Assembly: GCA_030429765.1 (NCBI GenBank)
Contig: JAUIER010000002.1
Coordinates: 42,126 to 106,125, forward strand
From: a bacterium
GTDB taxonomy: Bacteria > Omnitrophota > Gorgyraeia > Zapsychrales > Zapsychraceae
Length of the DNA: 64,000 nt
Direction: 5' to 3'
The position numbers and the translations under genes are program-made. Shown here piece after piece: positions 31,100 through 35,311 of the stretch. Within the stretch, counting starts at the first letter, position 1; every line of letters begins with the position of its first letter. The notes beneath the pieces are model-generated. The model searched no databases. It saw nothing but the letters and a program-made list of their open reading frames with translations, and was not told the origin of the DNA.

Positions 31100-31690
31100 T
31101 TAACGCGATTGCAGTTGCTTTTCAACATAACGCGCCAGCAGATCCACCTCAAGATTAACCGACTGTCCGATCTCAAGAATACCCAGATTGGTGTCACGTT
31201 CGGTGACGGGAATCAAATAAACCGAAAATTCTGTTTCACTGACTTCGCCCACCGTCAGACTGACTCCGTTTATCGTGATCGAACCTTTGGGCACCACAAA
31301 ACGCGCAATCGAATCTGATAGACTGAACTTAAGCTTGAGGTAGTTCTCCTCAGTGACTCGGTCGGTTAACGTCGCCACACAATCCACATGCCCCGAAACC
31401 AGATGACCGTCTATCCGGTCAGACAATTGCAGCGCACGCTCCAAATTAACCCGCTGTCCGACGCTGTATCGTCCCAGGACGGTCTTATCGAGTGTTTCCA
31501 ACATGACATCGAAATACAGCACATCTTCCTGCTGACGACAAACTGTCAGACACGCCCCGTCGACACAAATACTACTACCGAGCTTCGCTCCCTCGGCTAT
31601 TTTCTCCGATCGGATCGCCAACTCAACGAGATTTTTCTTCTGGACGACCTGATGAATGGTCCCGAGATCTTCAACGATTCCTGTAAACAT
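31100..31690 (-). CDS. ribE: Riboflavin synthase (alpha chain)
   Basis: MFTGIVE... with duplicated lumazine-binding halves. The ATG at 31690 was verified and overlaps ribD by 20 nt. Confidence 0.88.
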   Translation of the reverse strand: MFTGIVEDLGTIHQVVQKKNLVELAIRSEKIAEGAKLGSSICVDGACLTVCRQQEDVLYFDVMLETLDKTVLGRYSVGQRVNLERALQLSDRIDGHLVSGHVDCVATLTDRVTEENYLKLKFSLSDSIARFVVPKGSITINGVSLTVGEVSETEFSVYLIPVTERDTNLGILEIGQSVNLEVDLLARYVEKQLQSR

Positions 31691-32348
31691 TTGCCAGTAC
31701 CAAAATGTCCCCACCTAACGTGCGAACGGATTTAATGTCTAAATTTGTCAGACGATCCATACTCAAGACACGATTTCCCTGTACCGAACTCAAGGCCGTC
31801 TGATCCCCCATCACTTTCGGGGCCATGTAAATATGCATTTGATCGATGAGATTCCATCGCAGCGCCGAACCTGTAATCGTCGCGCCCCCCTCAATCAGCA
31901 GGCGCCGAACTCCCATCTCATAGAGCGCATTCATCATATATTTCAAATCGACCCGGCGATTCTTTTGAGGACACAGAATCACGGAGACACCCATCGCCGT
32001 AAGTCTATTTCGACGGCGCTCCGATGAGCGACGTGTCGTTGCCACAACCACGTGTTCTGTTTGTGCCCGTTTTAACACATTACTGCTGAAGGGCAAGGTC
32101 AAGGTGGAATCAACCACGATACGGATTAACGATTTGTTCTTGACGCCTGTTAGTCGCGGATTATCCCGAAGTGCGGTCCGTGCACCTACCAGGATCGCGT
32201 CAAATTCGTCCCGCTGTCGGCGGGCATAATCCCTGGCCTTTTGCGAAGTGATCCATTTGGATTTCCCGTTGGATGTGGCTGTCTTGCCGTCGAGGGTTTG
32301 CGCAATCTTGGCAACAACCTTCGGCCGGTGATATTTATCGGATGGCAT
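31671..32348 (-). CDS. ribD: 5-amino-6-(5-phosphoribosylamino)uracil reductase. Only the RibD C-terminal domain is present; there is no deaminase domain.
   Basis: 225 aa. ...LDGKTATSNGKSKWITS...ILVGARTALRDNPRLT... aligns to the reductase half of RibD. No CMP/dCMP-deaminase HAE...PC..C motif. Confidence 0.85.
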   Translation of the reverse strand: MPSDKYHRPKVVAKIAQTLDGKTATSNGKSKWITSQKARDYARRQRDEFDAILVGARTALRDNPRLTGVKNKSLIRIVVDSTLTLPFSSNVLKRAQTEHVVVATTRRSSERRRNRLTAMGVSVILCPQKNRRVDLKYMMNALYEMGVRRLLIEGGATITGSALRWNLIDQMHIYMAPKVMGDQTALSSVQGNRVLSMDRLTNLDIKSVRTLGGDILVLANVYRNR

Positions 32349-33165
32349 CGGAACGCTCCTTTAATTGCTCAACGACTTCATAAGGAACTGTCATCTTGCC
32401 TAAATAGGTATTCTTCTTGGCCTCACCATGATCGTCCGATCCACCCGTCGCTATCAAATTGTATTTGGCCGCCAGCTTGGCGTAATACGCGATCGTCTTG
32501 GTGCCGCAATTCGGATAGTGCGCCTCCAACCCTTCCAGGCCGGCTTCGGCGAACTGCGGAATCAGTTCATCCACCAACGTAAACATCGGATGGGCCAACA
32601 CAGGTACTCCACCGCAGGATCGTATCAATTCAATCCCTTCAAACGGGGACAGCTTGGCCTTGGGTACAAAGGCCGGTTGCCCGTCAGCGAGATATCGATC
32701 AAAGGCCTGACGAATATTTCGGACATGTCCATACTTCACCAAGATCGTGGCCAGATGCGGCCGGCCAATCGCGTCACCCTCTGTAAGTTCCGCCACCTCT
32801 TCAAAGGTGATGGGCCCGACTCCTAACTCGGCCAGTTTATCAATCATATCACGCATCCGTTCAACACGCGAGGCCTGAATCGTTTGCAGCTTTCTTAAAA
32901 AATGCTGGTTGGAAATATCAAGGAAATAGCCCAGGATGTGCACATCTTTATTATTGATTTGAGTGGAAAGTTCAATACCCGGAATGACCTCTACGTCCAG
33001 CTCCTGACCGGCATGAATGGCTGGTTCAACACCGTCGACGATGTCATGATCAGTGATGGCCACGCACTGAATACCATGCGCATGCGCCTTTTCAATGACT
33101 TCCCGCGGCGTTGAGGTGCTGTCTGAAAAATGAGTGTGGATGTGAAGATCGGCTATTTTAGCCAT
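32335..33165 (-). CDS. PHP-domain metal-dependent phosphoesterase (TrpH/YciV-like) embedded in the riboflavin operon
   Basis: MAKIADLHIHTHFSDS...VAITDHD... carries the PHP His/Asp motifs. The ATG at 33165 overlaps the nusB stop by 8 nt, and the 3' end overlaps the ribD start by 14 nt. Confidence 0.8.
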   Translation of the reverse strand: MAKIADLHIHTHFSDSTSTPREVIEKAHAHGIQCVAITDHDIVDGVEPAIHAGQELDVEVIPGIELSTQINNKDVHILGYFLDISNQHFLRKLQTIQASRVERMRDMIDKLAELGVGPITFEEVAELTEGDAIGRPHLATILVKYGHVRNIRQAFDRYLADGQPAFVPKAKLSPFEGIELIRSCGGVPVLAHPMFTLVDELIPQFAEAGLEGLEAHYPNCGTKTIAYYAKLAAKYNLIATGGSDDHGEAKKNTYLGKMTVPYEVVEQLKERSDAIR

Positions 33166-33624: not shown

Positions 33625-34092
33625 TTATAGTTTCGACAAAACATTTGCCATTTCAACCGCTACCTGGGCGGCGTCACGTCCCTTGTTGTTGCCTTCGGCC
33701 TCGGCCCGATCCTGAGCCAATTTGACTGTGGGCGTGGCCAATATTTCAAACACAACCGGCTTACCTGTATCGAGCGATGCCTTCATGATCCCCGCGGCGG
33801 CGTTGTCGGCCACTAACCGGTAGTGATCCGTTTCTCCAAGTATAACAGCTCCCAGGCAGATTACCGCATCGACGGTCTTTTTTTTTGCCAATTTCTGGGC
33901 CACGACCGGAATCTCAAAGGCCCCGGGGACAGAGACAACAGTCAGGTCCTTCTTCAGGACCCCTAATCGTCCTAATTCATCCAGGCAGGCGTCCCGCAAT
34001 CGACCGGTTATGCCCTCGTTGAAACGGGCGACAATAACGGCAATTTTAAGACCTTTTCCTGTTTTCGACTGACCTGAGATGATTTTTGTCAT
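33625..34092 (-). CDS. ribH: 6,7-dimethyl-8-ribityllumazine synthase
   Basis: 155 aa, ...IAVIVARFNE...GAFEIP.... Confidence 0.92.
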   Translation of the reverse strand: MTKIISGQSKTGKGLKIAVIVARFNEGITGRLRDACLDELGRLGVLKKDLTVVSVPGAFEIPVVAQKLAKKKTVDAVICLGAVILGETDHYRLVADNAAAGIMKASLDTGKPVVFEILATPTVKLAQDRAEAEGNNKGRDAAQVAVEMANVLSKL

Positions 34093-34165
34093 AATGCAAA
34101 AAGCCCGGAAAACAGGATATCAACGTAAGATATCCCGGATTCCGGACTGTAAGTTTAGATTTTGG

Positions 34166-35311
34166 TTATACTTTCGACGTTTGAGATTTACCCAACGGCA
34201 CACGCTCAATCATCGATAGGCCGAATCCCTCAAGCCCGACAATCTTCCGCGGGTTATTGGTCAGCAAACGGATATCCTTGACCCCTAAATCGACCAAGAT
34301 CTGCGCGCCAAGTCCGTAGTGACGAAGATCCGGCAATAACGGTAATTGGTCGGCATCCTGACTGGCGGCCTTGGCCTTCTGAACCTGCGCCACCTGGGCC
34401 TCGATATCAAATGTCCGTTGCGGCGTTCGCATGTAGATAATGACCCCTGAGCCATTTTCCTGAACGGCCTTGAACGCGGCCTGCAGTGCCCCGCTGCTCT
34501 TTAGCCCCTGCGCCTGGAATACGTCATTCAGCAGGTTCTCGGCATGGACCCGAACCAACGTCGGCTCTTTGTCAGATACTTCACCCAAAACCAGGGCAAT
34601 GTGCTCCAACTCGTCAACTTCCGAAAAATATTTAATGACTTTGAATTCACCGTACTGGGTGGAAAGCGTGCTTTCGTCGCCGCGCTCGACGAGCTTCTGG
34701 TACTTGGTGAGATGCTCGATAAGACTGTCGATCGTGCAGATTTTGATCCCGTGCCGCTTGGAAAACTCGATCAGGTCATTCGTGCGGGCCATCGTTCCGT
34801 CTTCGTTCATGATCTCGCAGATCACACCGGCTGGATAAAGTCCGGCCAGGCGTGTCAAGTCGACCGACGCCTCTGTATGTCCGGCCCGGACCAGAACCCC
34901 GCCCTTTTGCGCGCGAAGCGGGAACAAATGTCCAGGTGTGATAATATCCGTCGGTTTGGCCTCAGGATCAATCAGCAGTTTGACGGTGTAGGAGCGGTCC
35001 GCCGCCGAGATACCCGTGGTGATCCCCTTGGCTGCGTCGACCGAGATCGCCCAACCTGTGTCACACTTTTGATGCTTGCGGCTGTGGTCAATCTTCATCG
35101 GGTGCAAATCCAGTTCGTCCAAACGATCGGCCTCCATTGGCACACATACCAACCCGCGTGCTTCCTTGGCCATAAAGTTAATCAGATCCGGTGTGACAAA
35201 TTCGGCGGCACACAGCAAATCGCCTTCATTTTCACGCCCTTCGTCATCCATCACAATGATGAGTTTACCCTGCTTTAAATCCTCAAGAACTTCTTCGATC
35301 GTATTGAACAT
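34166..35311 (-). CDS. ribBA: 3,4-dihydroxy-2-butanone-4-phosphate synthase (RibB) fused to a degenerate GTP cyclohydrolase II-like domain
   Basis: The N-terminal half has RENEGDL, GHTEA and CEI (RibB). The C-terminal half aligns to RibA ([25 protein letters not shown]). However the three Zn-ligand cysteines are replaced (HSECLTGD to [8 protein letters not shown]; CDCG to GLKSSG), and the EGRGIG loop is not conserved. Confidence 0.85.
   Translation of the reverse strand: [381 protein letters not shown]

Follow-up and report, generated by a model that had tools for sequence, protein, structure and literature searches.

A riboflavin operon of Omnitrophota that combines a degenerate GTP cyclohydrolase II domain with a RibD protein reduced to its reductase

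How is riboflavin made when the operon dedicated to it appears to encode neither the first nor the second step of the GTP branch? The question is raised by a 64 kb window of DNA from an uncultured bacterium (the whole stretch analysed, positions 42,126 to 106,125 of contig JAUIER010000002.1 in assembly GCA_030429765.1), which the named homologues of its RibB-X protein place in Omnitrophota. [quoted passage not shown] Fusions of the RibBX kind are already known. The variant described here, which in one clade of Omnitrophota is coupled to a deleted deaminase domain in RibD, is new. We present what each protein has kept and lost, the distribution of the two losses among relatives, and the explanations for the source of the missing activities.

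The RibB-X fusion: retained and lost features

The RibB domain is intact. Pfam assigns residues 6-200 of RibB-X to DHBP_synthase and residues 212-372 to GTP_cyclohydro2; the curated ribB model TIGR00506 is passed and the ribA model TIGR00505 is failed (scores and cut-offs in Table 1). Every bifunctional RibBA equivalog model likewise falls below its cut-off on RibB-X (e.g., NF006803, 449.5 against 569).

We aligned RibB-X residue by residue with M. tuberculosis (Mtb) RibA2 (4i14), E. coli RibA, and the 120 best database homologues, of which 28 are degenerate and 92 are canonical RibBA proteins of 399 amino acids (aa); with the RibB-X of the window, 29 degenerate sequences were then compared column by column with the 92 canonical ones. 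In E. coli numbering, the three zinc ligands of RibB-X are replaced (C54 by Asn, C65 by Leu, and C67 by Ser), QEGRGIGL has become TPQRTFDI, the protein lacks Tyr105 and the DTVEAN block, and its C-terminal tail (E. coli 179-194) is cut short. The catalytic block and tail are lost or variable in all 29 members of the degenerate clade; in the 92 canonical sequences, the block is 100% conserved. These 92 read RCCCEGRIYVENDRK at fifteen tracked positions, and among the matches listed, about 100 canonical loci of many phyla carry RCCCEGRIYVENDRK at the same positions with hardly an exception. Because canonical loci are so uniform there, the departure of RibB-X from this string is not noise.

Loss of any single cysteine ends zinc binding and activity in GCHII (Kaiser 2002, as relayed in the review PMC10366380). 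Since three zinc ligands and the catalytic loop are lost together, the GCHII-like domain of RibB-X is almost certainly catalytically inactive. An earlier, sequence-only reading of this DNA had aligned the C-terminal half of the fusion with RibA, reported substitution of the three zinc cysteines and loss of the EGRGIG loop, and proposed that the domain is probably inactive. Our analysis bears this out: the PF00925 match covers that half, the strings it quoted (including HAENL) are present in the translation, and the checks it proposed, a comparison with RibA/GCHII models and an inspection of the zinc-ligand columns, agree with it. It had also named, as a finding that would refute it, alternative metal ligands at shifted positions. 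In the X domains of the 29 members, neither Cys nor His has gained a conserved column; the X domain of the window contains no Cys, and 17 of the 29 are likewise Cys-free.

The fold nonetheless persists. An AlphaFold2 model of RibB-X (predicted local distance difference test score, pLDDT, 72.6) keeps the GCHII fold, and Foldseek matches it to 4i14 (target-normalised TM-score, TMt, 0.85), to E. coli GCHII (2bz0, 0.78), to 4rl4 (about 0.76-0.78 for 2bz0 and 4rl4), and to the RibBX structure 6mnz (0.66). The former catalytic loop is modelled poorly: pLDDT is about 58 at residues 301-310 and below 50 for most of 312-331.

The X domain evolves faster than the canonical GCHII domain: at RibB-domain identities of 70-80%, X domains are 51% identical and canonical GCHII domains 76%. 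Across relatives of both kinds, degenerate and canonical, identity in the RibB domain itself is about 78-81%. Even so, the X domain is still under purifying selection and is no decaying spacer. More than 30 of its columns are 97-100% identical among the 29 members, including R49, D58, R128, YGxGAQIL, and LLTNNPRK, and D126 is kept in 90% of them. This selection makes it probable that the X domain serves the RibB domain in a structural or regulatory way. In GCHII, R128 touches the alpha-phosphate (PMC10366380); because R49, D126, R128, and TNNPRK are retained, the X domain may still bind a guanine nucleotide.

The reductase-only RibD and the pairing of two losses

The second loss lies in RibD. 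The protein matches RibD_C alone (residues 9-216) and gives no PF00383 hit, in agreement with the sequence-only reading, which had seen a 225 aa reductase domain free of deaminase motifs. The gene for a PHP-family phosphoesterase abuts its start codon. RibD passes the bacterial model TIGR00227 (175 against 150.15) and falls below the cut-off of the archaeal model TIGR01508 (132.7 against 186.45). At positions 151, 167, 171, 183, 199, 203, and 290 of B. subtilis RibG (BsRibG), it keeps K, S, T, R, D, L, and E; its Lys13 is the equivalent of BsRibG Lys151 and E. coli RibD (EcRibD) Lys152. A Lys at this position favours the 2-oxo, deaminated substrate; in yeast Rib7, Thr35 favours the diamino substrate, and the T35K mutation moves the preference (PMC3631187).

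The same residues, Lys included, are retained in six of six reductase-only proteins. These score 164-185 bits with the bacterial model and 125-138 bits with the archaeal one; C-domains cut from canonical Omnitrophota RibD score 173-188 and 121-135 bits. The best Protein Data Bank (PDB) match of the reductase is M. jannaschii 2azn, as it is for a canonical Omnitrophota C-domain. An exhaustive search of representatives puts the reductase-only clade nearest, as three clusters, with mostly bifunctional relatives beyond it. The Lys is found in 87 of 90 relatives of bifunctional length and in 24 of 26 of stand-alone length, some of which may be contig-end fragments. By its TIGR00227 score, its Lys, and its substrate-site residues, the protein is of the ribD2 type; its TIGR01508 score and the Lys at the specificity position separate it from archaeal and fungal reductases. 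These features point to an unchanged specificity, with 5-amino-6-ribosylamino-2,4(1H,3H)-pyrimidinedione 5'-phosphate (AROPP) still the substrate. Because such a reductase needs AROPP, a deaminase must act before it.

The two losses occur together. Gene order (ribBA, ribH, nusB, PHP, ribD, ribE) is constant in all Omnitrophota-type operons read. Of the degenerate loci, six show ribD (the window, L001, L122, L123, L125, and L128), and in every one it codes for RibD_C only, at 218-234 aa; in all 19 non-redundant canonical Omnitrophota loci, RibD comprises deaminase and reductase and measures 360-375 aa. The contrast of 6/6 with 0/19 gives a Fisher probability of about 6e-6, a value that ignores shared ancestry. 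Decay of GCHII and deletion of the deaminase domain are evolutionarily coupled across the clade, a pattern that the earlier reading overlooked. For RibBX, we found no description in the literature of a pairing with a deleted deaminase domain.

The 29 degenerate sequences come from independent ENA, JGI, NCBI, and Logan assemblies. A profile scan of genome contigs with the family alignment gave only canonical RibBA among the matches listed (best 68%), which served as controls, and a scan of metagenome contigs with the X domain gave at least three further degenerate loci, on contigs that end before ribD. The RibB-X of the window is about 64-70% identical to canonical Omnitrophota RibBA.

A single origin of the degenerate group is the simplest reading, mainly from two shared features: the truncated tail, found in all 29 members, and a His at E. 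coli position 51, which is Gln in 92 of 92 canonical sequences. A neighbour-joining tree built from nine syntenic gene segments shows the degenerate clade as monophyletic (only 69 of 200 bootstraps); a tree of the RibB domain only and a six-gene neighbour-joining tree do not resolve it. Two members, P0065 and P0076, keep C54 and C65 and have lost C67, and they look intermediate in the decay; the locus of P0076 (L125) already has the reductase-only RibD.

The source of the missing GCHII and deaminase steps

These features suggest a pathway in which the proteins encoded by the operon would have lost steps one and two of the GTP branch, both zinc-dependent. Within the GTP arm, the steps that depend on zinc are the very two whose activities are lost (bioRxiv 10.1101/2025.09.16.676631). 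RibB-X would supply DHBP, with an X domain predicted to be unable to bind zinc or open the guanine ring. The reductase-only RibD would convert AROPP to 5-amino-6-ribitylaminouracil 5'-phosphate (ARAPDP), which would be dephosphorylated, possibly by the PHP enzyme of the operon, and carried on to lumazine and riboflavin. The path from GTP through 2,5-diamino-6-ribosylamino-4(3H)-pyrimidinone 5'-phosphate (DARPP, also written DAROPP) to AROPP would depend on unlinked genes: a stand-alone ribA and a deaminase of the ribD1 type. Two analogies make such genes the most likely source. In proteobacterial strains with RibBX, a monocistronic ribA elsewhere gives GCHII and is essential in Aeromonas, according to PMC10012899; and in KEGG, module M00125 provides for ribD split into ribD1 and ribD2. 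On this basis, it is reasonably probable that both steps are supplied from elsewhere in the genome.

Several points weigh against this explanation. The inactivity of the X domain is itself read from sequence. Neither the 64 kb window nor the flanks of five related operons (up to 10 kb) contain a stand-alone ribA or deaminase. The deaminase domain of B. subtilis RibG had no tblastn match in the window, and E. coli RibA and the Mtb GCHII domain matched only the ribB-X locus there; among 30 further window proteins, Pfam revealed no GTP cyclohydrolase, GCH-III, cytidine deaminase-fold, or amidohydrolase candidate. When canonical Omnitrophota sequences of the deaminase and GCHII domains served as seeds, searches gave only contig-end fragments and frameshifted long-read assemblies, so the trans copies, if any, are not simple fission products. 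Finally, Omnitrophota are reported to have host-dependent traits, which makes dependence on a partner possible (PMC10066038).

The candidates rejected in these searches deserve mention. P0130 and P0226, on long contigs, belong to long-read assemblies with frameshifts, where splits affect ribE and his genes as well. Five apparent stand-alone GCHII proteins (P0257, P0310, P0296, P0251, and P0330) are truncated or frameshifted RibBA. The apparent stand-alone deaminase genes on two long ENA contigs, at L126 10001..11765 and L127 10001..11099, are products of frameshifts, with ribD, ribE, and his genes in adjacent pieces; records such as these could pass for split ribD1/ribD2 genes.

A broader alternative holds that the clade makes or acquires its pyrimidine precursor without a canonical GCHII or a RibD-type deaminase, through unknown and possibly zinc-independent enzymes or an intermediate from a host, and that the dead GCHII domain serves as a nucleotide-sensing regulator of DHBP synthase. 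We consider it possible but doubtful. Its parts can be weighed separately.

The first is dependence on another cell: GCHII and deaminase would have been lost genome-wide, a host or partner would provide a pyrimidine intermediate, and the clade would finish riboflavin with its own reductase, phosphatase, RibB, RibH, and RibE. Two consecutive steps are lost together, replacement genes were found in none of the sequences read, and Omnitrophota have been described as ultra-small with host-dependent traits; yet a complete riboflavin pathway is reported for more than 75% of Omnitrophota species (PMC10066038). The chemistry makes this explanation unlikely. The intermediate needed by the reductase, AROPP, is 5'-phosphorylated and chemically labile, and its import would be improbable; salvage of 5-amino-6-ribitylaminouracil, which is stable and unphosphorylated, would leave the reductase useless, yet it is conserved in six of six loci with an intact active site.

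The second is replacement by unrelated, perhaps zinc-independent enzymes that yield AROPP, such as a GCH-III/ArfB-like route with an unknown deaminase. We know of no bacterial replacement of this kind, and neither the window nor the flanks hold a candidate gene; moreover, the evidence of absence on which it draws stems from searches of part-genomes. It is decidedly unlikely, even though the two losses fall on precisely the zinc-dependent steps of the GTP arm (bioRxiv 10.1101/2025.09.16.676631) and the protein database hits include no stand-alone homologues close to the Omnitrophota type.

A different order or chemistry within the operon is very improbable. The sequence-only reading had suggested a reductase-first route as in archaea and fungi, which the stand-alone reductase and its match to 2azn would favour. 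The suggestion finds no support here: the specificity position holds Lys, and the C-domains of canonical bifunctional Omnitrophota proteins also match 2azn best and have the same TIGR01508 and TIGR00227 scores. Under the companion proposal, a neofunctionalised X domain would make the pyrimidine intermediate with other metal ligands. The retained R49, D126, and R128 are in keeping with it; however, the domain is Cys-free, has no conserved alternative ligand set beyond residues that canonical enzymes share, and is variable or deleted throughout the 91-123 catalytic block.

Artefact or functionless decay is refuted by recurrence across independent assemblies: although frameshifts do break up ribD and ribE in some long-read database assemblies (L126 and L127), the window genes are intact open reading frames (ORFs), the architecture recurs in 28 more proteins and 5 more loci from independent projects, and RibB, RibH, RibD_C, and RibE pass curated cut-offs.

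Operon setting and comparison with known systems

The rib genes form a single compact minus-strand string (window 35311..31100) in the order ribB-X, ribH, nusB, PHP, ribD, ribE, followed by fabZ, an acylphosphatase gene, and ligA (Table 1). The NF006767 alignment on ribE begins at ORF residue 9, and the ATG at 31690 (MFTGIVE...) is the probable true start. The promoter candidate upstream of ribB-X, a strong sigma-70-like one, was called by consensus match alone. In the rib leader, 35312..35445, neither the Rfam gathering threshold nor a limit of E <= 1 brought up a flavin mononucleotide (FMN) riboswitch. The presence of ribF in the window, 8 kb from the operon, indicates that flavin cofactors are made.

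Table 1. Positions of the rib operon, its protein features, and neighbouring genes in the window
Feature	Position	Strand	Evidence or remark
ribB-X (RibB + GCHII-like fusion), 381 aa	35311..34166	-	ORF list, Pfam
ribB-X N-terminal DHBP synthase (RibB) domain	34712..35311	-	PF00926 271 bits, full model; TIGR00506 256.9 > 177.45
ribB-X C-terminal X domain, residues 201-381	34166..34711	-	PF00925 157 bits; TIGR00505 114.6 < 205.85
Zinc-site remnant, residues 256-275	34487..34546	-	C54N, C65L, C67S vs E. coli RibA, Mtb RibA2
Catalytic-loop remnant, residues 296-327	34331..34426	-	EGRGIG, Tyr105, DTVEAN blocks lost
ribH, lumazine synthase	33625..34092	-	PF00885 166.7 bits; TIGR00114 148 > 84.6
nusB	33158..33589	-	PF01029; TIGR01951 149.5 > 88.35
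PHP-family metal phosphoesterase gene	32335..33168	-	PF02811; overlaps nusB stop and ribD start
ribD, reductase-only, 225 aa	31671..32348	-	PF01872 only
Lys13 codon of ribD	32310..32312	-	Equivalent of BsRibG Lys151 / EcRibD Lys152
ribE, riboflavin synthase	31100..31714	-	PF00677 two copies; NF006767 227 > 155
Sigma-70-like promoter candidate TTGACA-17-TATAGT, upstream of ribB-X	35417..35445	-	Consensus scan, 11/12 matches
ribF, bifunctional flavin adenine dinucleotide (FAD) synthetase / riboflavin kinase	22707..23651	-	Between truB and mraZ
CNT/NupC-type concentrative nucleoside transporter	1688..3001	-	Adjoins DUF924 gene
Two ORFs, 248 and 458 aa, between cinA and rib operon	35479..37598	+	Without Pfam match
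ORF run, 139, 135, 734, 214, and 193 aa	52677..56975 and 58329..58910	-	Without Pfam family
tRNA gene	61035..61107	-	Sole Rfam match at gathering score in whole window

Some features of the surroundings lie outside the pathway. The two plus-strand ORFs next to the operon have counterparts of 248 and 458 aa in the same position at L001 and L002, with no Pfam hit on record, a likeness of size and position only; ORFs of similar size, also with no Pfam hit on record, lie near the operons of other Omnitrophota loci. The longer run of ORFs without a Pfam family lies partly in lower G+C, about 0.43 (52-54 kb and 58-60 kb bins).

The PHP gene inside the operon was overlooked by the earlier reading. 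Its product belongs to the YciV / nucleoside-bisphosphate phosphatase branch and falls below every curated cut-off, including those of the NCBIfam models for 3',5'-nucleoside bisphosphate phosphatase and for RNase RNM, which it matches best. Its PDB relatives are 3e0f, 9etk, 2yb1, and 7ug9, and its His/Asp/Glu metal ligands are conserved in 29 orthologues. All rib operons of the Omnitrophota type that were examined carry the gene between nusB and ribD (the window, L001, L003-L011, L013, L015-L017, L019, L022, L027, L037, L041, L051, L079, L089, L093, L098, L122, L123, L125, L126, and L128); among the matches listed, rib operons of other phyla are without it, except those of Auribacter and a few metagenome-assembled genomes labelled Planctomycetes. 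For ARAPDP dephosphorylation, only HAD, histidine-phosphatase, and IMPase enzymes are listed, and whether a dedicated enzyme exists is called unsettled (PMC12051542, PMC13151069). From its genomic association and intact metal site, the PHP enzyme is a candidate ARAPDP phosphatase, and its phylum-wide presence brings one more enzyme family to this long-unsettled question.

The locus matters for annotation and for comparative work. JGI names call some degenerate proteins bifunctional RibBA or RibD, and NCBI names the closest relatives DHBP synthase only; automated pipelines score the riboflavin pathway as complete though the operon encodes neither of the two steps. The paired loss of zinc-dependent steps is a clean comparative signal, from which one would expect either two specific unlinked genes or something novel. 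Furthermore, with the intermediates P0065 and P0076, the degenerate clade is a useful natural series in which to study what the retained GCHII fold contributes to RibB.

Four known systems invite comparison. The archaeal and fungal DAROPP reductases (MjaRED, 2azn; yeast Rib7) are likewise stand-alone reductases of the RibD_C fold, of about 220 aa. They differ from the reductase-only RibD at the specificity position, where the latter has Lys in place of Thr (yeast Thr35) and shows no shift from the C-domains of its bifunctional relatives; in M. jannaschii MjaRED, we take the residue there to be Asn. The split ribD1 (deaminase, K01498) / ribD2 (reductase, K00082) genes of some bacteria come closer, since ribD2 stands alone as a reductase of the bacterial type and carries the Lys that specifies AROPP. 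In the Omnitrophota clade, however, no ribD1 lies nearby, and the reductase-only gene occupies exactly the operon position of a bifunctional ancestor, alongside an inactivated GCHII.

Plant RIBA paralogues have reportedly lost one of two activities (a finding credited to Hiltunen et al. in 2012). They share with RibB-X the RibBA scaffold and the inactivation of one domain through loss of catalytic residues; they differ in being eukaryotic and in standing beside a fully active copy, whereas RibB-X is the only copy in its operon. The sequence-only reading had drawn this parallel, which is apt as a comparison with an inactivated paralogue; it left unnamed a closer, bacterial precedent.

That precedent is the RibBX of Proteobacteria (Shewanella oneidensis, Aeromonas salmonicida, Bradyrhizobium, and Acinetobacter baumannii; 6mnz). 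There, too, an active RibB is fused to a GCHII-like domain without zinc and ring-opening residues, the GCHII fold is retained, and the protein is encoded in the main rib operon beside ribH and nusB. As described in PMC10012899, the proteobacterial X domain has no GCHII activity and modulates RibB by an unknown mechanism; the same description lists ribD in the Aeromonas rib operon and notes no truncation, in contrast to the deaminase-domain deletion seen here. The Omnitrophota protein groups instead with canonical Omnitrophota RibBA, matches canonical 4i14 better (339.7 bits) than 6mnz (291.3 bits), and keeps D126, R128, and TNNPRK, where 6mnz has Gln, Gln, and S-SPLRF. This grouping, these scores, and these different retained residues identify RibB-X as a RibBX-type fusion that arose independently within Omnitrophota, a re-invention younger than its proteobacterial counterpart.

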